DNA of 64,000 bases from Burkholderiales bacterium (GTDB lineage Bacteria; Bacillota; Clostridia; Christensenellales; SZUA-584), in contig JBLNCA010000006.1 of assembly GCA_050260375.1 (NCBI GenBank), positions 20,559-84,558 on the forward strand, read 5' to 3'. Positions 43,761-58,600 of this stretch are shown here, piece by piece. The notes under the pieces were generated by a model, which ran no database searches, was not told the DNA's origin, and saw only the letters and a list, made by a program, of their open reading frames with translations. Every line of letters begins with the position of its first letter. Position 1 is the stretch's first letter. The position numbers were made by a program, and so were the translations under genes.

Positions 43761-43773
43761 TTTGGAGGACAGT

Positions 43774-46359
43774 ATGCAGCAGTTAACACCTATGATGAGA
43801 CAATACGTAGAGCTTAAGGAAAAATACAAAGACTGTTTGCTGATGTTTCGTCTTGGGGATTTTTATGAATTGTTTTTCGACGACGCTGTTTGCGCGTCCC
43901 GCGAATTGGAGATAACGCTTACCGGCAGGGACTGCGGCTTGCCCGAGCGAGCGCCCATGTGCGGAGTACCGTACCATTCGGTTCAGGGGTATATAGACAA
44001 GCTTATAAAGAAGGGCTACAAAGTTGCGATATGCGAACAGCTCACCGACCCCGCGCAGTCGCCCGGGCTTGTCGAGCGGGATGTGATAAGGGTTATAACG
44101 CCGGGCACCGTTACCGAGAACACGATGCTAAGCGATACCGACAACAACTACATACTCGCGCTGCATCGCGAAGGCGGCAGCGTCGGGCTCGCTTACGCCG
44201 ACGTTTCCACCGGCGCGTTTTTTGCAGGCGAGTGCGCCGCTGACGAGGAATACTCCGCCGTAATCAACGAGATATCGAGGATACTGCCCAGCGAGATAAT
44301 ATACTGTTCGGACGATAAGGATATAATAGGCAAGCTCGAAAACATTATAAATGAGCAGAGCATATTCATAAGCGAGTATCCCGGGTTCACGTTTGAGCGC
44401 GATACGGCGCTTGAATCGATAATGTCGCACTTTAATGTCACAGGCGTTTCGGGCTACGGCATAAGCGAGCAGAGCCCGGCGGTATGCGCGGCGGGCGCGC
44501 TTATCGACTACTTAAAAGAAACGCAGAAAAACGCGCTATCGCATATAAACAGCATACGCGTGATAGGCTCGAGCGATTTTATGGCGCTCGACGTGTTCAC
44601 GCGCAGTAACCTTGAGCTTACAAGAACGCTGCGCGAAGGCAAGGTTAAGGGTTCGCTTTACGGCACGCTTGACCGCACTAAGACGGCGATGGGGGGGAGG
44701 CTGTTAAAACGCTACATCAACGAGCCGCTTCAGGATATAAACGAGATACAGTTAAGGCTGGACGCCGTCGAGGAGATAAAAGGCGACCTGCGGCTTGCGG
44801 ACAGCATAGGGGAGGCGTTGGACGGCGTATATGACTTAGAAAGGCTTATATCGCGCATTTCATACTCAACGCTGGACGGGCGCAACTGCCTCTCGCTTAA
44901 GAGCTCGCTTGCAAGGCTGCCGCTGCTAAAGGACGCTATAAAAAACTGCAAGTCAACGCTGCTTATGCGCCTTTACTCGGGCCTCGACTGTATGGAGGAT
45001 ATATACGCGCTGCTTGACACCGCAATAGAAGAGGACGCCCCGGCTGGCATAACGGAAGGCGGCATAATAAAGAAGGGCTACAATGCCGAGATAGACGAGC
45101 TAAAAGAAGCCTCAAAGAAGGGAAAGTCATTCATAGCGTCGCTGGAGAGCACGGAGCGCGAAAGCACAGGCATAAAGAACCTGCGCGTAGGCTACAACAA
45201 GGTGTTCGGCTATTACATAGAGGTCACGAAATCGTATCTCGAGCTCGTCCCGTACAGATACATAAGAAAACAGACGCTTGCCAACTGCGAGCGTTTCGTG
45301 ACGCCCGAGCTTAAAGAGATGGAAGAAAAGCTGCTTGGCGCGGAGGAAAAGTGCGTTGCATTAGAGTACGAATGCTTCGTAGAGATAAGAAACAGGCTTT
45401 CGCAAAACATAAGCCGCTTCCAGAACGCCGCGAGGATAGTGGCCGAGCTCGACGTTTTACGCAGCCTGGGCGTAATAGCGTATGAAAACAACTATACAAA
45501 GCCTGTTATGTCGCAGAACGGCAAAATAAGCATATCGGGCGGCAGGCATCCCGTCGTCGAGACGTTTGTCAAGCAGTCGTTCGTAAAAAACGACACGCTG
45601 CTTACCGATGAAGAGAGCATAATGATACTCACAGGCCCAAACATGGCGGGCAAGAGCACGTACATGCGGCAGGTGGCGCTCATTGTGCTTATGGCGCATA
45701 TGGGAAGCTTCGTGCCCGCGGACAGCGCCCATATTTGCATCGTTGACAAGATATTTACGCGCGTGGGCGCTTCGGACAACCTTGCGTCCGGGCAGAGCAC
45801 GTTCATGGTGGAAATGAACGAGGTTGCGAACATACTCAACAACGCGACGCCGAGGAGCCTTCTGATTTTGGACGAGATAGGCAGAGGCACGAGCACGCTT
45901 GACGGGCTGTCTATCGCGTGGTCCGTCGTCGAGTTCATAAGCAAAAACATAAAGGCAAAAACGCTGTTCGCGACGCACTTCCATGAGCTCTCCGAACTGG
46001 AAGGCGTTGTGCCCGGCGTAAGCAATTATTCGATAACGGTGAAGGAAATGGCCGACACCGTAATATTCCTGCACAAGATTGTGCGCGGCGGAACGAATAA
46101 GAGCTTCGGCATAGAAGTCGCAAAGCTCGCCGGCGTACCCGAAGACGTGACGTCTCGGGCTAAGGCCATAATGAAGGCGCTGGTTGAAAAGGACGACAGC
46201 GTACTAGTCGTGCGCCGAAGCCGGCCGGAAAAGGAGTACGGCAGGGACGACCTTATCGCACAGCTTGCAGCCGTCAACCTCGACAACATTACACCGCTCG
46301 ATTCGCTCAAGCTGCTGAGCGAAATAAAGCACAGAATAGGCGGGAAGCGGCATGAATGA
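43774..46359 (+). CDS. mutS: DNA mismatch repair protein MutS
   Basis: TPMMRQY, GDFYELF, TGPNMAGKST, STFMVEM and DEIGRGTST motifs. Confidence 0.98.
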   Translation: MQQLTPMMRQYVELKEKYKDCLLMFRLGDFYELFFDDAVCASRELEITLTGRDCGLPERAPMCGVPYHSVQGYIDKLIKKGYKVAICEQLTDPAQSPGLVERDVIRVITPGTVTENTMLSDTDNNYILALHREGGSVGLAYADVSTGAFFAGECAADEEYSAVINEISRILPSEIIYCSDDKDIIGKLENIINEQSIFISEYPGFTFERDTALESIMSHFNVTGVSGYGISEQSPAVCAAGALIDYLKETQKNALSHINSIRVIGSSDFMALDVFTRSNLELTRTLREGKVKGSLYGTLDRTKTAMGGRLLKRYINEPLQDINEIQLRLDAVEEIKGDLRLADSIGEALDGVYDLERLISRISYSTLDGRNCLSLKSSLARLPLLKDAIKNCKSTLLMRLYSGLDCMEDIYALLDTAIEEDAPAGITEGGIIKKGYNAEIDELKEASKKGKSFIASLESTERESTGIKNLRVGYNKVFGYYIEVTKSYLELVPYRYIRKQTLANCERFVTPELKEMEEKLLGAEEKCVALEYECFVEIRNRLSQNISRFQNAARIVAELDVLRSLGVIAYENNYTKPVMSQNGKISISGGRHPVVETFVKQSFVKNDTLLTDEESIMILTGPNMAGKSTYMRQVALIVLMAHMGSFVPADSAHICIVDKIFTRVGASDNLASGQSTFMVEMNEVANILNNATPRSLLILDEIGRGTSTLDGLSIAWSVVEFISKNIKAKTLFATHFHELSELEGVVPGVSNYSITVKEMADTVIFLHKIVRGGTNKSFGIEVAKLAGVPEDVTSRAKAIMKALVEKDDSVLVVRRSRPEKEYGRDDLIAQLAAVNLDNITPLDSLKLLSEIKHRIGGKRHE

Positions 46360-48268
46360 GATAAGGCTGCTCCCGAAAAGCATATCAGACAAGATAGCCG
46401 CGGGCGAGGTGGTAGAGCGGCCTGCTAGCGTAGTCAAAGAGCTGGTTGAAAACGCGATAGACGCTAAAGCAAGCGCCGTCAGCATAAGCATTTCGGGCGG
46501 CGGTATAAGGGAGATCTCAGTCGCCGACAACGGCGTGGGCATAGCCTCGGACGACGTGCGGCTCGCGTTTGAAAAGCACGCGACGAGCAAGCTGTATACG
46601 CTTGGGGACTTAGAATATATAAGCACTCAGGGCTTCCGCGGTGAAGCGCTTTCCAGCATCGCGGCCGTGTCGATAGCGGAGATGAAGACAAAGCGCAGGG
46701 ACGAAGAGACCGGCACTCAAATACGCGTAAGCGGCGGGCGTCTGGATTATGCGAAGCCCGCTGGGCTGCCCGACGGAACGTCGGTGAACGTCAGCAATCT
46801 GTTTTACAATGTGCCCGCGAGGCGCAAGTTTTTAAGGAAAGAGTCGCAGGAAGCGGCGTATGTATCCGACCTTGTGTCGCGCTACATACTCGCGTTCCCC
46901 GAAATATCGTTCCACTATACGTCGGAAGGAAAGACTATATACCACAGCCCCGGCAACGGCGACCTCTCTTCGGCGATCTACTGTGTTTACGGAAGCGCTG
47001 CTCTGGACACAATTGTGTTTGTGCAGCATCAAACAAACGATATACAAGTATCAGGTTACGTGTCGCGTCCGGGCGCTATTATGAAAAACAGGAAGGCGGG
47101 CAGCGTTTTTGTGAACCGGCGCTATGTGAGGAACACGGCACTGCATGATATGGTAAAAAGCGCGTACGGAGAGACACTCGTAAAGGGCGAGACGCCGTTT
47201 TTCGTGCTAAATATAGAGCTGCCGTTTTCGGCGGTGGACGTAAACGTGCACCCCAATAAGCTGCAGGTGCGCTTTAAAGACACTTCGGCCGTTGAATACG
47301 TAATAAAGGAAGCGGTGTCAAAAGCGTGCGCCGCGCCGCGCGGCAGCGTGTTTACTGACGCTGCGGAGCCGCAAAAGCGCAGCGTCGTAGAGATGCGCGC
47401 GCCCGAAGGCGTGCAGGAAGGCTTCTTTTCCGGGTTTAATAACGGGGCCCCCATAAAGCCAAAAGCTTTATGGGGTGATAACAGCGGGGCCCCCATAAAG
47501 CCAAAAGCTTTATGGGATGATAGTAGCGGGGCTCCTATACTCAATACTTTTTGGGATGAAAACAGAAATGTTCTGAAAGAGCAGGAAACGGCTAACGCGG
47601 ACGCAAACGCTTACGATATTAGCGCGCAAAGTTCGGCCGAGCCGGAGCTTCAAAAGCATGAACAGCCGGAAAGCCCGGCAGCCCAAACTGAAGCCGCTAA
47701 GATAAGCGTTCAAAGCTACAGGTTGATAGGCTCGTTCGGCGCCACGTATGCGCTTGTAGAACAGGGCGACGACCTGCTTATAGTCGACCAGCACGCCGCG
47801 CACGAGCGGCTGCTTTACGAGAAATTCAAGAGCAGCAAAGCGCCTCTTTCGCAGGCTCTTTTATACCCTTACGTGTTTACGGCGTCGCATGAACAGAAAA
47901 ATGTGCTCGATGACAACATGGAGGCTTTTATCGCGGCGGGGTTCGATATAGAGCCGTTTGGCGCGCTGGAGTACAAGATAAGCGCAGTGCCCTCCATAGC
48001 GTCCGGCGCCGCCCCCGGCGAGCTGATAAACGACGCCCTTGCCGAAATACAGAGCGGGGGAGACGTAGTGCTGAAGCGCGAAGCGATAATTAAAGCGGCG
48101 TGCCGAAGCGCTGTAAAGGCGGGCGATAAGATGAGCGAAGCCGAGCTTAAAAGCCTTGTGGACAGCTTTCTTACATCGGGCGTAATGCCTACGTGCCCGC
48201 ACGGGCGGCCTGTGATATCGGTAATATCCAGAAAGCAGATAGAAAAGAGCTTTAAAAGAACAGTATGA
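46352..48268 (+). CDS. mutL: DNA mismatch repair endonuclease MutL
   Basis: IAAGEVVERP, GFRGEAL, DQHAAHER and CPHGRP motifs. Confidence 0.97.
   Translation: MNEIRLLPKSISDKIAAGEVVERPASVVKELVENAIDAKASAVSISISGGGIREISVADNGVGIASDDVRLAFEKHATSKLYTLGDLEYISTQGFRGEALSSIAAVSIAEMKTKRRDEETGTQIRVSGGRLDYAKPAGLPDGTSVNVSNLFYNVPARRKFLRKESQEAAYVSDLVSRYILAFPEISFHYTSEGKTIYHSPGNGDLSSAIYCVYGSAALDTIVFVQHQTNDIQVSGYVSRPGAIMKNRKAGSVFVNRRYVRNTALHDMVKSAYGETLVKGETPFFVLNIELPFSAVDVNVHPNKLQVRFKDTSAVEYVIKEAVSKACAAPRGSVFTDAAEPQKRSVVEMRAPEGVQEGFFSGFNNGAPIKPKALWGDNSGAPIKPKALWDDSSGAPILNTFWDENRNVLKEQETANADANAYDISAQSSAEPELQKHEQPESPAAQTEAAKISVQSYRLIGSFGATYALVEQGDDLLIVDQHAAHERLLYEKFKSSKAPLSQALLYPYVFTASHEQKNVLDDNMEAFIAAGFDIEPFGALEYKISAVPSIASGAAPGELINDALAEIQSGGDVVLKREAIIKAACRSAVKAGDKMSEAELKSLVDSFLTSGVMPTCPHGRPVISVISRKQIEKSFKRTV
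47441..47563 (+). repeat. Three in-frame tandem copies (42+42+39 bp) of the palindromic repeat inside mutL
   Basis: aacggggc-ccccataaagc-caaaa-gctttatgggg-tgataac and two diverging copies; encodes GAPIKPKALW twice and GAPILNTFW. Confidence 0.88.
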
Positions 48269-49179
48269 GCAGGTTCATAGTTATAACTGGGCCGACGGCT
48301 TCCGGCAAGACATACGTTTCCGTGCAGGTGGCAAAAGCGCTGGGCTCCGAAATAATCTGCGCCGACAGCATGCAGATATACCGGGGCTGCGACATAGGCA
48401 CGGCAAAAGCGACAAAAGAAGAGCAGCAGGGCGTGCCGCATCACATGCTGGATATTGTAGATCCTAACGAGGAATATTCAGTCGCCGAGTTTCAGAAAGA
48501 AGCGTTTTCGCTGATAGAGCTGATAAATAACAAGGGAGTAGTGCCTATCGTTTCGGGAGGAACAGGGCTGTATATAAACTCCCTTGTATATAGGCTCGAT
48601 TTCGGCGCAGTCAAAAATGATGCGCTTCGACAAAAATACGCACAACTTAGTGATGACAAAAGCACCGCGTACCTGTATAATACTCTTAAGGAAAAAGACC
48701 CAGAATATGCTAACATAATTTCCGGCAACGACGCGAGGCGCATAATAAGAAGGCTGGAGATTATTGAAGCGCAAGGGCGCTCAGCATATGATTTCAGGAA
48801 GTACAACGACGAACACGAATATATACTGATAGGGCTGACCATGCCGAGGGATATGCTCTATAAGCGTATAGAAGCCCGAGTAGACGCCATGATGGACGCC
48901 GGCCTGCTGGATGAAGCCAAAGCGCTGTACGAAAAGTACGGCAACGTTAACGCACTCAAAGCCATAGGCTATAAGGAACTGGTATCGTACATAAACGGAG
49001 AATACAGCCTTGAAGAAGCGGTAAGGCTTATAAAGCGTAACACAAGGCGCTTTGCGAAAAGGCAGTTTACCTGGTTTAAAAGAGATGAAAGGATAAACTG
49101 GTTTGATATTTCAGTGTATACCTGTATAGAAGATACCATTAATGATATAATCATATATATTAAAGGAAAGGGGTTTTAG
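48265..49179 (+). CDS. miaA: tRNA dimethylallyltransferase
   Basis: [20 protein letters not shown] and AKRQFTW motifs. Confidence 0.97.
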
Positions 49180-49180
49180 T

Positions 49181-49432
49181 ATGCAGAAATCCGTCATCGT
49201 ACTGCAGGACGTCTTTTTGAACCAGGTGCGCAAAGAAAAGGTCCCCGTCACTATTCATCTTACAAACGGGTATCAGATAAAAGGTTCGGTAAAAGGCTTT
49301 GACAACTTTACCATTATACTTGACAGCGAAGGAAAACAGCTTATGATATACAAGCACGCCGTTTCCACGATTGCGCCCGTAAAATCGGTTTTCTTTACAT
49401 TCTCAGACAAACAGAAAGAAACGCAAGAATAG
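49181..49432 (+). CDS. hfq: RNA chaperone Hfq
   Basis: LQDVFLN and IYKHAVSTI motifs; follows miaA. Confidence 0.95.
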
Positions 49433-49435
49433 TTT

Positions 49436-50707
49436 ATGCAGATACTCAAAAGTTTCGGGATAAGCGATAGTATACTATCGCTTGTCGCCGACGCCGAATC
49501 TTCGCTTTTTAAGATTTTCCGCGACGTGGAAGCGACAGCGGAATACAATCAATACAAGGTAATAGACGCATACAGGCAGGAAAACATATCTCCGCGCCAT
49601 TTTGCCCCGTCCAACGGATACGGTTATTCCGATGAAGGCAGGGAGGCGCTCTCAAGAGTGTTCGCGCGCATAACGAAAGCCGGAAGCGCAGTTTTAAGCC
49701 CGCATATCGCGTCGGGTACGCATGCGATATCGCTGGCTTTATTCTCTGTACTGCGCCCCGGCGATACGCTTATAAGCGCTACGGGACGCCCGTATGATAC
49801 CTTAACGGGAATAATAGGCGACAAGCGCACAAAGGATACGGGCTCGCTTGCGGACTACGGCATCGATTATAAGGAAACCGCGCTTCTTCCCGACGGAAAT
49901 ATAGATATGGAAAGCCTGGAAGCGCTGCTTAGACAATGCAAACGGCCAAAGGTAGTAATGATGCAGCGCTCGCGCGGCTACGCGTGGCGCAAGGCGCTGA
50001 GCATGGCGGATATTAAAGACGCCGTTACGAAAATAAAGAACAAGTTCCCGAAAATAATTGTATTCGTCGATAACTGCTACGGGGAGTTCTGCGAGAAAGA
50101 AGAGCCTACAGAATGCGGCGCCGATTTGATGGCGGGCTCGATGATAAAAAACCCCGGAGGCGGGCTTGCGCCCACCGGCGGATACGTGGCGGGAAGGGAA
50201 GATTTGATAGAGCTTGCGGAAAACAGGCTTACGTGCCCCGGGCTGGGAGCGGAAGTAGGCTCGTACGAAGCGTCGTACAGGACGTTCTTTCAGGGGCTGT
50301 TTATGGCGCCGCACACCGTCGGCGAGGCGCTGAAAGGCAGCATATTGTCCGCAAAGGTGTTCGAGACGCTCGGGTTCGACGTATATCCCAAGTTTGACGG
50401 GCAAAGAAGCGATATCACGCAGTCTATAAAGCTCAATGACGAAAAGCTGCTGCTCGCATACACGAGGGGCATACAAAAAGCCGCGGCTATTGACAGCCGG
50501 GCCGTGCCCGTGCCCTGGGATATGCCGGGATATGACGACAAGATAGTCATGGCCGCGGGTACGTTCGTCCAAGGGGCTTCCATAGAGCTCTCAGCCGACG
50601 CTCCGGTAAAGCCGCCTTATATCGTGTACGCTCAGGGCGGTCTTACATACGCCCACATGAAGCTGGGACTTATGGTAGCGCTTGCTGAGATGAACATAGT
50701 GGATTAA
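49436..50707 (+). CDS. YnbB-like PLP-dependent methionine gamma-lyase family protein
   Basis: SGTHAI, QRSRGY, DNCYGEF, GSMIKNPGGG and MAAGTFVQGASIELSAD motifs. Confidence 0.9.
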   Translation: MQILKSFGISDSILSLVADAESSLFKIFRDVEATAEYNQYKVIDAYRQENISPRHFAPSNGYGYSDEGREALSRVFARITKAGSAVLSPHIASGTHAISLALFSVLRPGDTLISATGRPYDTLTGIIGDKRTKDTGSLADYGIDYKETALLPDGNIDMESLEALLRQCKRPKVVMMQRSRGYAWRKALSMADIKDAVTKIKNKFPKIIVFVDNCYGEFCEKEEPTECGADLMAGSMIKNPGGGLAPTGGYVAGREDLIELAENRLTCPGLGAEVGSYEASYRTFFQGLFMAPHTVGEALKGSILSAKVFETLGFDVYPKFDGQRSDITQSIKLNDEKLLLAYTRGIQKAAAIDSRAVPVPWDMPGYDDKIVMAAGTFVQGASIELSADAPVKPPYIVYAQGGLTYAHMKLGLMVALAEMNIVD

Positions 50708-51127: not shown

Positions 51128-51733
51128 TTATCTGAACATGCGCAGCACTCCGATAACTTTGCCCAGTATATTCATATCCTTTGTATATATAGGCTGATAT
51201 TTATCGTTTTCGGGCTGCAGCTTTACGAAGCCGTTCTCGAGATAAAACCTCTTTACAGTAGCCTCGTCGTCTATCATAGCGACGACTATGTCGCCGTTTT
51301 GCGCGTAGTCCTGCTTTTTGGCGATTATCCTGTCACGGTCCAATATCCCCGCGCCGATCATGCTGTCCCCGCTTACGTTGAGTATAAAAACGTCGTCGGT
51401 GCCGAGCAGCGAATAGGGGAGAGATATGTATTCCTCCACATTTTCAACGGCCGTTATAGGTACGCCCGCAGCCACCTTGCCGACTACGGGTATCTGCACG
51501 AAGCGCTCCTTTGTCTGGCTGCCGTCCAGTATCATGATTGTCCTCGGCTTGGCGGGATCCCGGGATATATAGCCCTTTTTTTCAAGCTTGGTAAGGTGCG
51601 CGTGCGCCGTGGACGTAGACTTTAAGTTGAGCGCGCAGCATATATCACGCACGCACGGAGCGTATCCGTTGTCAGCGATATAGTCTTTTATGTATTGGAG
51701 CACGTCGTTCTGGCGCCTGGACAATCCTTCCAT
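51128..51733 (-). CDS. lexA: SOS repressor LexA
   Basis: N-terminal HTH, VAAG cleavage site, GDSM serine and ATVKR lysine. Confidence 0.97.
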   Translation of the reverse strand: MEGLSRRQNDVLQYIKDYIADNGYAPCVRDICCALNLKSTSTAHAHLTKLEKKGYISRDPAKPRTIMILDGSQTKERFVQIPVVGKVAAGVPITAVENVEEYISLPYSLLGTDDVFILNVSGDSMIGAGILDRDRIIAKKQDYAQNGDIVVAMIDDEATVKRFYLENGFVKLQPENDKYQPIYTKDMNILGKVIGVLRMFR

Positions 51734-51753: not shown

Positions 51754-51803
51754 ATGATAACAAATATATACGTGCATGTCAACGACATACAAACAAATGT
51801 TCG
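51754..51803 (-). promoter_or_regulatory. lexA promoter with SOS (Cheo) box
   Basis: TTGACA (51777-51782)-17-TATCAT (51754-51759); CGAACATTTGTTTG at 51790-51803 fits the GAAC-N4-GTTY consensus. Confidence 0.8.
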
Positions 51804-51809
51804 TAAAAT

Positions 51810-52853
51810 TCAAGTCTTATTCCGCTTGTCGCGGAAGCTTACCGCGCCCGAAGCGGATCTGCGGCGCTCCTCGTCTATGGCCGCGTAATGCTTTCTTGTT
51901 GTGTTTACGTCTTTATGGCCGAGCACGTCAGCGACGAGATATATGTCGCCCGTTTTTTCGTACAGCATAGTGCCGTACGTGCTGCGCAGCTTGTGGGGGG
52001 AAATGTTCTTAAGCGGCACGGCGATGCTTGCGTATTTCTTAACGAGCTGCTGCAATGCGCGAACACTCATTCGTGTATTTTGCAGCGAGAGGAACATGGG
52101 GGAGTCCTGGCTGAAATTGGCATTTTCCTTGCGCTCTTCGATATAGCGCTCTAGAGCCGCTTTAGTCTCGTCGCCGAAATACAGCAGCACTTCGTTGCCG
52201 CCTTTGCGCAGAACCTTAAAAGCCTTGTTTTTAAAATCGAAATCGCTGACGTCGAGCGCGCATAATTCGCTGATGCGAATGCCGGTTGTCAGAAAAAGCG
52301 TGAATATTGCGATATCGCGTATTTTCGTTTTTTCGTGAAATTCGCGCTGTTTGGGTGATAACCCGGCGCCCGTTTCGATTATGTTCAAAAGCGATAATGC
52401 TTCATTGTTATCGAGCCGTATTATTGGCTTTTCGTGTATCTTGGGAGTTTCGAGCTTTGTAGTGACATTGGTGTCTATAAAGCCTTTTTTATAGTAATAT
52501 TTATATAGAGACCTTACCGACGAGAGCTTGCGAGCGATGCCTTTTTCGCCGTTTTCCACGACGGCGTCGTCCTTATAATACAGTGTAAGGTACTCTAAAA
52601 ACATCTCAAAATCGTTCATAGTGATGCTTTCGAGGTCTTTTGCCTTAAAATGCTTAGTATCCATGCCGAGCTCGTTTTCCAAAAACGAGAAGAACAATCT
52701 TAAGTCGTAAGCGTAATTTATGCGCGTGAGCAGCGAAGTACGAGGTTCGATGCCTCTGAAATAATCAAGGCAGAACGGAGGGAGCGTTGAAAGCACATTC
52801 TTGAGTTTTTCAGTTTTCTGAGCACTTAACTCGGTTTTGCTTGATTTGGACAT
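51810..52853 (-). CDS. Stand-alone Xer-like tyrosine recombinase (347 aa)
   Basis: ARKLSSVRSLY, TGIRISEL, RKGG, PHKLRST and LGH..VNTTRKHY motifs give a complete catalytic set. Confidence 0.92.
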   Translation of the reverse strand: MSKSSKTELSAQKTEKLKNVLSTLPPFCLDYFRGIEPRTSLLTRINYAYDLRLFFSFLENELGMDTKHFKAKDLESITMNDFEMFLEYLTLYYKDDAVVENGEKGIARKLSSVRSLYKYYYKKGFIDTNVTTKLETPKIHEKPIIRLDNNEALSLLNIIETGAGLSPKQREFHEKTKIRDIAIFTLFLTTGIRISELCALDVSDFDFKNKAFKVLRKGGNEVLLYFGDETKAALERYIEERKENANFSQDSPMFLSLQNTRMSVRALQQLVKKYASIAVPLKNISPHKLRSTYGTMLYEKTGDIYLVADVLGHKDVNTTRKHYAAIDEERRRSASGAVSFRDKRNKT

Positions 52854-52866
52854 TCCCTACCCCCAA

Positions 52867-52896
52867 CTATGCGCAAAACATGTCTTTTACGCATAG
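52867..52896. other. Candidate dif-like recombination site
   Basis: CTATGCGCAAAA-CATGTC-TTTTACGCATAG: 12-bp inverted arms with 1 mismatch and a 6-bp asymmetric spacer, 14 bp upstream of the recombinase ATG. Confidence 0.6.
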
Positions 52897-52900
52897 ATAT

Positions 52901-53389
52901 TTATATCGCCGAAGGCTCCTCTTTTTTGGAAGGCGCTTCTTTTTCGCCATTTTTGGTATTCTCTTTGATGGCCCCTCTCGCGAGCTTGTCGCACAGAGTG
53001 TTGTATTTATCGCCCGCGTGGCCTTTAACCTTTTTCCACGAGACGTTGTGACGCCGCGACAATTCCAATATATCCTGCCAAAGCTGCCGGTTTTCCACCG
53101 GCTTTTTAGCGGCGGTTTTCCAGCCGTTCGCAATCCAGTTGTCTATCCAGCGCTTTTCAAACGCGTTATGTATATATGAACTGTCGGTGTATAACGTTAC
53201 GTTGCACGGCTCTTTAAGCGCTTTTAGCGCCTCCAAAGCAGCTTTTAATTCCATGCGGTTGTTGGTGGTATCCGGCTCAAAGCCGCTTATCTGCTTTTCA
53301 TTGCCTTTATATATGAGCACGGCCGCCCAGCCGCCCGGGCCGGGATTATTGGAGCACGCTCCGTCCGTATATATCGTAACGTTCTTCAT
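52901..53389 (-). CDS. rnhA: Ribonuclease HI
   Basis: YTDGACSNNPGPGG, TTNNRMEL and KVKGHAG motifs. Confidence 0.97.
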   Translation of the reverse strand: MKNVTIYTDGACSNNPGPGGWAAVLIYKGNEKQISGFEPDTTNNRMELKAALEALKALKEPCNVTLYTDSSYIHNAFEKRWIDNWIANGWKTAAKKPVENRQLWQDILELSRRHNVSWKKVKGHAGDKYNTLCDKLARGAIKENTKNGEKEAPSKKEEPSAI

Positions 53390-54183
53390 TGCGCAAGCGC
53401 CTTAGATTTTTTTGCGCATTGTTCAACCGCTTTGATGACCGCTCCCCTGAATCCATCCGTTTCCAGCGATTTTACGGCCTCTATAGTCGTGCCTCCCGGC
53501 GAACAGACTGCGTCCTTGAGAGCTCCGGGGTGCTTCCCTGTTTCTATCACCGTTTTAGCCGCGCCGAGCACGGTCTGCGCCGCAAGTGTGGCCGCGACGT
53601 CTCTAGGCAGCCCGCACAGCACGCCGGCATCGGAAAGCGCTTCTATGAACATATAAACGTACGCAGGCCCGCTGCCCGAAACGGCGGTGACCGCGTCCAT
53701 CAGCTTTTGCGGCGCGTGTTCTATTCTTCCCAGCGCGGAGAATATGCGTTCTATAAACTCCCTGTGTTCGTCCGAAAAGTTGCTGGGCGACTCGAATACG
53801 CTCATGCCCTCCCCCACCAATAGCGGCGTATTGGGCATAAGGCGCAGCACGCGTCGATCCTTTCCTATAACGGCTTTTATCATGTCGGCGCTCCACCCGG
53901 CCGCAATCGAAACTATGGGCTTATCAAAGCTTTTTATCTCGGTTAACACAGATTCCATCACATTGGGCTTAACCGCGAGCAGTATTATGTCGCTTTCCTC
54001 GCAAAGCTCGCTTAAGCTGCCCATAGCTTTTATTCCCAAGGCCTTCAAAGCTTCAAGTTTTGTTTTGTCGATATCGAACACACGTACGCTATCAGAGCTT
54101 AAAACGCCCTTTTTAATGGCGCCGTTTATAATCGCCGACGCCATATTGCCAGCGCCTGCAAACCCGAGACGGTATTCCGACAT
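53386..54183 (-). CDS. proC: Pyrroline-5-carboxylate reductase
   Basis: GAGNMA, MPNTP, SGSGPAY and CSPGGTT motifs. Confidence 0.97.
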   Translation of the reverse strand: MSEYRLGFAGAGNMASAIINGAIKKGVLSSDSVRVFDIDKTKLEALKALGIKAMGSLSELCEESDIILLAVKPNVMESVLTEIKSFDKPIVSIAAGWSADMIKAVIGKDRRVLRLMPNTPLLVGEGMSVFESPSNFSDEHREFIERIFSALGRIEHAPQKLMDAVTAVSGSGPAYVYMFIEALSDAGVLCGLPRDVAATLAAQTVLGAAKTVIETGKHPGALKDAVCSPGGTTIEAVKSLETDGFRGAVIKAVEQCAKKSKALAQ

Positions 54184-54241: not shown

Positions 54242-54316
54242 AGGGGAGTGGCTCAATGGTAGAGCATCGGTCTCCAAAACCGACGGTTGCGTGTTCGAAT
54301 CGCGTCTCCCCTGCCA
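54242..54316 (+). tRNA. tRNA-Trp (CCA)
   Basis: AGGGGAGTGGCTCAATGG...CTCCAAA...GTTCGAATC...GCCA; promoter TTGACG-17-TATAAT at 54198-54226; terminator at about 54328-54353. Confidence 0.95.
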
Positions 54317-58378: not shown

Positions 58379-58600
58379 TTAAATTGATGCACCTCCTTAT
58401 TAAGTTTTCATGCAAATATCCCGTCTTTATACGATATATCTGCGCATAGCCGCCGCTTTCAAAAACCTTTATAATAAAAAAGATTCCCTGAATGCGGCAT
58501 AGAGATTGCTAATTATGAAAAATCTACAAAATGAAAACAATAATAAATCCTCATAATAGAAACCCTTTTAATTTTATTATCAACGGTGAGTTTTGTCAAG

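Follow-up and report, generated by a model that had tools for sequence, protein, structure and literature searches.

The window, by which is meant the whole stretch of 64,000 nucleotides that was analysed, belongs to contig C6, which is 194.7 kb long and part of a draft genome, G000, of 2.88 Mb in 57 contigs and 96% completeness. It contains the gene of a 347-aa protein with the Pfam domains Phage_integrase and SAM-like, a Xer-type tyrosine recombinase, the same-strand neighbours of which are rnhA upstream and lexA downstream (Table 1). Between rnhA and the recombinase gene there is a gap of 47 bp (52854-52900), and within this gap lies a 30-mer inverted repeat, whose two 12-bp arms are set about a 6-bp spacer, CATGTC, that is itself non-palindromic. 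The arms pair at 11 of their 12 positions, the sole mismatch being at arm position 8, where it reads C·A on the plus strand and T·G on the minus strand. A preliminary description of this DNA, made from its letters, had reported the repeat, its one mismatch, its asymmetric 6-bp spacer and the length of the gap, all of which are present as described, although the arms that it gave as 11-6-11 in its title are in fact of the form 12-6-12. It had also remarked that the site abuts the ribosome-binding site; indeed, the 13 bp that separate the 30-mer from the recombinase ATG hold a purine-rich one.

Table 1. Features of the recombinase locus, in positions of the window
Feature	Position	Strand	Remarks
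Dif-like candidate recombination site, arms consensus CTAT[G/T]CG[C/T]AAAA, 6-bp spacer	52867..52896		Single copy; at 30/30 best orthologue loci
Xer-type tyrosine recombinase, 347 aa	51810..52853	-	Only PF00589 match in genome
Purine-rich leader and ribosome-binding site, 13 bp, site to start codon	52854..52866	-	From sequence
rnhA (RNase HI), upstream neighbour	52901..53389	-	In fetched locus of 28/30 orthologues
lexA, downstream neighbour	51128..51733	-	lexA in 27/30 loci
GGGGGAG, last forward copy ahead of site	52098..52104	+	C6:72656
GGGGGAG, first reverse copy past site	53809..53815	-	C6:74367

Some features of the surroundings may be recorded alongside. A strong promoter-like site for lexA (51782-51754) and an SOS-box-like sequence stand directly after the recombinase stop codon (window 51754-51801), and an SOS-box pattern is found ahead of lexA in 19 of 30 orthologue loci. 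Convergent with lexA is an operon (window 43762-50707) of mutS, mutL, miaA, hfq and a methionine-gamma-lyase-like gene, the first four being named from their translations. A short peptide repeat, GAPIKPKALW-like, occurs in three near-copies in the MutL linker (window 47100-47250), and proC and purB are separated by a tRNA gene (window 54242-54313).

The general properties by which a dif site is recognised are that it is intergenic, palindromic, present in single copy and lower in GC than the genome (Carnoy and Roten 2009), and the 30-mer has all of these. G and C account for 12 of its 30 bases, as against 51% for the contig, and it occurs once in G000, in the window itself, with the next-best arm match at 19/24. 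No joint or substitution is listed inside it in the contigs of the sequencing run, which also gave no RNA evidence of use. The genome contains in total 107 inverted repeats of the form 12-N6-12 with at least 11 of 12 pairs; in other words, the palindrome by itself is unremarkable, and what goes beyond chance is its uniqueness, its distance of 18 bp from the skew maximum and its conservation at 30 of 30 orthologue loci. The AAAA-N6-TTTT core of the site is present in none of the ten other 11-6-11 repeats at C6:60-90 kb.

The R-K-HxxR-H-Y residues of the recombinase, which had been described as intact, are R193, K217, H287, R290, H313 and Y323, and all six are invariant in an alignment of 74 sequences. 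The protein is the only tyrosine recombinase found in the genome: a PF00589 search gave one match among four candidates, which is this gene, and tblastn with eight Xer queries (E. coli XerC and XerD, firmicute XerC and XerD, XerS and others) matched only the recombinase locus. A pair of XerC and XerD was not found in the 96% complete draft, and the canonical dif consensus has no match in G000 at one or two mismatches, with 1 of 41 relatives matching at one mismatch. A canonical dif elsewhere was rejected as a candidate, the loose regular expression returning scattered chance matches only and the strict one nothing under three mismatches. The preliminary description had named a canonical XerCD/dif in another place as counter-evidence, and profile, tblastn and dif-pattern searches found none in G000. 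One same-genus draft without the gene has, near other integrases, a match resembling canonical dif and, 1 kb from it, a degenerate version of the site (G005:C21:92675-93685).

A position at the skew shift, opposite the origin, is a further general property of dif. The cumulative GC skew of C6 has its maximum at 73407, 18 bp from the site (C6:73425-73454), and the distance from dnaA to the orthologous gene is 0.45-0.56 of the rounded genome length in all five near-complete relatives. When contigs are oriented by skew and words of at least 60 copies are compared, the most strand-biased 8-mer is GGGGGAGA, which has 73 leading copies versus 1 lagging, and 19 versus 0 inside lagging-strand genes, in which GGGNAGGG (25:25) and GAGAAGGG (8:7) are unbiased in G000. 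Along C6 the word GGGGGAG is forward up to the last copy ahead of the site and reverse from the first copy past it (Table 1), with a single exception, a reverse copy at 58579. The same switch brackets the site in the near-complete relatives G007, G008, G014, G028 and G033, and among the copies listed within 300 kb of it in these five, with those of G033 listed in part, 76 of 79 point toward the site by hand count. The terminus position and the single copy near the skew inflection that the preliminary description had envisaged are both borne out, the former by the skew peak, the flip of the polar word and the distance from dnaA alike.

Polarity that is independent of gene direction and that flips at dif is the mark of a KOPS, and GGGGGAG(A) has both properties. 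A single FtsK is encoded in G000, with 4TM, alpha, ATPase and gamma domains. On the evidence of its polarity, GGGGGAG(A) is a candidate clostridial FtsK guide word (KOPS), though it may instead be a Chi-like or otherwise leading-strand-selected word. The SRS of B. subtilis is an octamer. Like the KOPS and SRS words, GGGGGAG(A) is a purine-rich 8-mer that is oriented with the leading strand and flips at a dif-like site; it differs, however, from the KOPS GGGNAGGG in the accessible text of PMC13342612, a word that is non-polar in lagging-strand genes here. In L. lactis the polar words are A-rich heptamers (accessible text of PMC5357621). No description of GGGGGAG as a KOPS was found in the literature searched, from the coverage of which subscription journals mostly fall outside.

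The association of site and gene is conserved among relatives. Of 41 such genomes, 37 have a full-length orthologue and one more has a contig-end fragment, the related genomes being non-independent observations. At the best 30 orthologue loci, the window's own included, the site stands upstream of the gene in every case and always with a 6-bp spacer, with 21-24 of the 24 arm letters matched and 13-634 bp from site to start. Two genomes of 95-96% completeness that are without the gene are also without the site at up to three mismatches. In the reverse direction, a scan of GTDB by the site pattern, in which spacers of 3-10 were allowed, gave at least 120 independent matches, and the spacer is 6 bp in 118 of the 120 listed; the matches listed bear Clostridia titles, including Christensenella, Christensenellaceae, Lachnospiraceae and Oscillospiraceae. 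The conserved arms and fixed spacer anticipated in the preliminary description are, as such, found in both directions. Among 85 gene-linked sites (four of them duplicated between two sets) there are 43 different spacers, and a spacer of fixed length with variable letters is again a general property of dif; palindromic spacers number 0 of 85 where some 1.3 would be expected, a difference that is not significant.

With regard to linkage, the gene lies within 2 kb of the site at 48 of 80 loci with fetched flanks, the site being 5' of the gene in all 48, and no such gene lies within 2 kb at 23 of the 62 loci that have at least 1.5 kb on both sides. The distance from site to gene reaches 1.7 kb in some genomes, and in others the gene is not within 2 kb. 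Linkage is, in other words, common but not obligatory. Beyond the order, a one-mismatch site pattern matched 75 of 251 class genomes and gave many control matches too; this class-wide count was dropped as too noisy, and the arm sequence is not demonstrably class-wide.

The region between the site and the gene bears upon expression of the recombinase. A generic promoter pattern, TTG-N3-N16-18-TANNAT, used with an opposite-side control after an earlier regular expression fitted post hoc had been set aside, starts 0-5 bp past the gene-facing arm at 13 of 30 orthologue loci and at 0 of 30 past the other arm; among the 52 loci of a second set the counts are 5 gene-facing versus 1 opposite. The window's own leader leaves no space for a promoter, and none was called in it; transcription of the gene therefore probably comes from rnhA and passes through the site, with rnhA and the recombinase gene likely co-transcribed in this genome. 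Autoregulation through the site, also raised in the preliminary description, is plausible: bound recombinase would likely damp its own expression, by overlap with the promoter in relatives and by a block to read-through from rnhA here.

Sites of this type are also found on mobile elements. A search of plasmid DNA with the site gave one match (L322:745-774), which consists of perfect copies of the same 12-bp arm and stands 26 bp upstream of a xerS gene on a Peribacillus plasmid. Among three more plasmid xerS loci, sites similar to it are present in two (L330:445-474 and L328:399-428) and, at the threshold used, absent from one. The plasmid xerS genes that have such 12-6-12 arms, identical or alike, immediately upstream belong to Peribacillus and Niallia; no description of these plasmid XerS sites was found in the literature searched. 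The likeness of the arms fits an old shared target sequence, or convergence. A homologue on a Butyrivibrio plasmid (L323:662) has a related site.

The site is carried by 23 IMG/VR phage contigs, with a 6-bp spacer in 21 and a 7-bp spacer in 2; no complete match to it came from the phage collection of GenBank. None of the 23 has the window-type recombinase in its fetched flank, and a tyrosine recombinase of their own is present in 6 of the 22 phage records searched, most of which are fragments. A terminase gene was identified beside the site in at least 11 of the 23, among the 67 and 30 ORFs scanned. In one contig, L158, a rolling-circle Rep, a Zot-like ATPase and small hydrophobic ORFs lie on one side of the site and the host genes dtd and PP-loop on the other, a layout, with one end seen, that suggests a filamentous prophage integrated at the site. 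Within this contig (L158:4960-5070) the site is nested in a longer inverted repeat that is reminiscent of a folded single-strand attP. The tailed-phage contigs L153, L156, L157, L160-L163, L167, L169, L172 and L173 have a full copy of the site next to terminase genes, and L166 and L172 encode FtsK-like proteins. In four AT-rich phage contigs of 37-126 kb (L152, L155, L168 and L170) the site is beside genes for a thermolysin-like protease and a dUTPase, and in one of these a Rep3 initiator is 5 kb from the site; the four are possibly phage-plasmids that use the host Xer.

The overall emerging interpretation is that the 12-6-12 palindrome at the terminus and the adjacent 347-aa recombinase probably form a one-enzyme chromosome-dimer resolution (dif) system. 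This is the reading that the preliminary description had put forward, and it draws support from the recombinase being the only tyrosine recombinase found in the genome and from a site that is conserved at the terminus; the phage-like element of L158, which ends at such a site, speaks indirectly for crossover there. By extension from Xer biology, each arm would be occupied by one recombinase protomer. Where the chromosome is a dimer, septal FtsK would translocate along GGGGGAG(A) to the site and unite both copies, upon which a recombinase tetramer would cleave at either end of the 6-bp spacer, with strands exchanged via a Holliday junction to give two monomers. The letters of the spacer would be free to vary between species because the spacer need match only its sister copy. 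Phages with the same arms would, in turn, borrow the host enzyme.

Other readings of the repeat need to be weighed against a one-enzyme dif system. That it is an RNA hairpin, either a terminator or a processing stem, ending the rnhA transcript is extremely unlikely: a fold of -15 kcal/mol is possible and in the window the sense strand has a G-U wobble at the mismatch, but the 6-nt loop is kept in 118 of the 120 matches listed while its letters vary, and no Rfam match or terminator call falls on the site. Moreover, in the 85 gene-linked sites, in which most other arm positions are fixed by the search pattern, the position-8 pairs on the gene sense strand are T·G in 35, C·G in 21, C·A in 18 and T·A in 11, which places a C·A mismatch on the sense strand in 18/85 and on the other strand in 35/85. 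Arms that vary separately, with C·A mismatches on either strand, are expected of a protein half-site and not of an RNA stem. The hairpin or terminator was rejected on these grounds, and the objection that the preliminary description had raised against itself, namely that the mismatch is a wobble and the loop might vary freely, does not stand. It is improbable, though less so, that the palindrome is only an operator for self-repression of the recombinase, with dimers resolved at another site or nowhere. Such a role would accord with a site that is always 5' of the gene and that abuts the -35 box in 13 of 30 orthologues; it sits poorly with a site 18 bp from the skew peak and within the switch of the polar word, with genomes in which the gene is up to 1.7 kb away or not within 2 kb, and with a phage-like element (L158) that ends at the site. 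Nor do the ten other repeats of C6:60-90 kb, which are without the AAAA-N6-TTTT core, or the searches for a canonical dif offer another site.

Two further alternatives concern the enzyme. The recombinase could join a XerD-like protein in a heterotetramer, this partner having escaped assembly in the draft or being too divergent for detection, and here the 96% completeness of the genome leaves some room, as does the single base by which the arms differ in the window. XerD scores above cut-off in 2 of 41 relatives, and these two same-order genomes carry the recombinase gene and the site too; a partner is therefore possible in those two. This heterotetramer is nevertheless highly improbable for G000, since none of 24 family members has a XerD over the cut-off, many relatives have arms of full symmetry, and xerD is missing from its usual place: deoB, which comes after xerD in the two relatives that retain xerD, is interior to contig C37 and has no xerD ahead of it. 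There is a similarly slight chance that the pair comes from a mobile element since domesticated, the gene as its integrase and the site as its attachment site, and that it persists at the terminus without taking part in dimer resolution. Genes related to it, accompanied by similar sites, occur on plasmids of Bacillales and Butyrivibrio, and 23 phage contigs have the site, both of which speak for such an origin. Against it are a full-length orthologue in nearly all relatives (37/41, and the one contig-end fragment), a genome with no other Xer candidate and a fixed neighbourhood with rnhA at 28 and lexA at 27 of 30 loci, which is the housekeeping setting that had been described at the outset.

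As to family, the best NCBIfam model for the recombinase is XerS (NF003462), at 183 bits and under the cut-off of 267, a model on which a difSL-linked XerS scores 554 bits; identity to difSL-linked XerS is 27-29%. A careful tree (34 of 61 rows, LG+G4, midpoint root) and a quick-search tree (61 rows) were built, neither with XerH or XerL, the XerS sequences being drawn from difSL-bearing metagenome contigs. In the careful tree ten clostridial proteins and the Butyrivibrio plasmid protein form a clade of their own (98/99), and the XerS of streptococci, Paenibacillus and the Peribacillus plasmid form another (100/100), without the window recombinase. These two clades and one further row unite at 94/87, a node that is not starred, apart from XerC/D, and the quick tree concurs. 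The protein would thus work in the manner of XerS and XerH. The recombinase clade is probably sister to XerS, and judged by sequence the recombinase is XerS-like, not XerS proper. Its predicted model, made with the 74-sequence alignment, has a pLDDT of 88.6 (35 for the single-sequence fold) and gives Z 23.1 and rmsd 14.3 against XerA and Z 21.1 and rmsd 4.1 A over 285 residues against XerH, in fold searches that are unable to separate XerA, XerH and other tyrosine recombinases. Among other firmicutes, Paenibacillus chromosomal xerS genes (L182:568, L184:464) have a symmetric canonical-type dif-like sequence some 2 kb away or nearer and no A-tract site, and firmicute Xer proteins of 311-342 aa outside the recombinase clade (L192, L194, L197, L198, L200, L201) have, next to the gene, perfect palindromes of the type CGCAAAA- or CACAAAA-N6.

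No description of a clostridial single-Xer system was found in the literature searched, subscription journals being mostly outside its coverage, and none appears in the accessible text of PMC3025954, PMC5357621, PMC1914069, PMC2731167, PMC8138268, PMC5241119, PMC13342612 or PMC9765430. In the accessible part of the work of Kono et al. 2011 (PMC3025954), supplement S2 has 19 'Clostridia' rows, of which 7 are Clostridium or Anaerocellum, and in all 7 dif was either not detected or placed 66-175 degrees away from the skew shift. Dimer resolution in core Clostridia has, in this sense, been a gap until now, for which a site, an enzyme and a candidate FtsK guide word are named here, with a scope that takes in a large group of Clostridia from gut, soil and digesters. 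One enzyme that acts on a near-symmetric site with a free spacer would amount to a natural Cre/lox-like tool, and the site could serve as a neutral landing site at the terminus for bacteria of the group; the phage copies of the site point to elements that exploit the host system. A wider proposal, to which we would give somewhat less than an even chance, is that this is a distinct single-recombinase segregation system that replaces XerCD across Christensenellales-type Clostridia, in which a XerS-sister enzyme acts on a symmetric 12-6-12 site (with arms as in Bacillales plasmid XerS, possibly the ancestral site of the XerS family), with a new FtsK guide, GGGGGAG(A), with self-repression at the site and with filamentous and tailed phages borrowing it.

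The known systems, so far as the accessible text of the papers cited describes them, share different parts of this arrangement. XerC/XerD (CodV/RipX)-dif, of Bacillus, E. coli and, by prediction, Desulfotomaculum-type Clostridia (PMC3025954), has the same fold, catalytic residues, 6-bp spacer and terminus position, and FtsK is present; it consists, however, of two enzymes and arms of the TAAT-N6-TTATGT type, in contrast to one enzyme and symmetric A-tract arms here. XerL/dif of Legionellales (PMC9765430), compared by description only, is alike in its single enzyme, its long uninterrupted inverted repeats, its exploitation by mobile elements and its homologue on plasmids, but the XerL gene and dif are >400 kb apart where here the two are adjacent. 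XerH/difH of Campylobacterota (PMC2731167, PMC5241119; PDB 5jk0, 5jjv) likewise works as a single enzyme on a site close to the skew shift, with an AAAA-N6-TTTT core and a variable hexamer, and the predicted model resembles the XerH fold; identity is, however, some 20%, the outer arms are different and the sequence scores of the recombinase to XerH are below those to XerD or XerA. XerS/difSL of streptococci and lactococci (PMC1914069, PMC5357621) differs in that difSL is an asymmetric 31-mer with other outer sequence, where here the 12-mer arms are near-symmetric and only the A4-N6-T4 core is common, and in that xerS is described as a stand-alone module, as opposed to the conserved rnhA-xer-lexA neighbourhood. 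It is alike in having one recombinase of about 350 aa (XerS is ~356 aa) with its site immediately upstream and at the terminus, in the AAAA-N6-TTTT inner core and in its place in the tree, on the side of the recombinase and apart from XerC/D (94/87). Indeed, autoregulation has been speculated for difSL as well, in the accessible text of Le Bourgeois et al. (PMC1914069).
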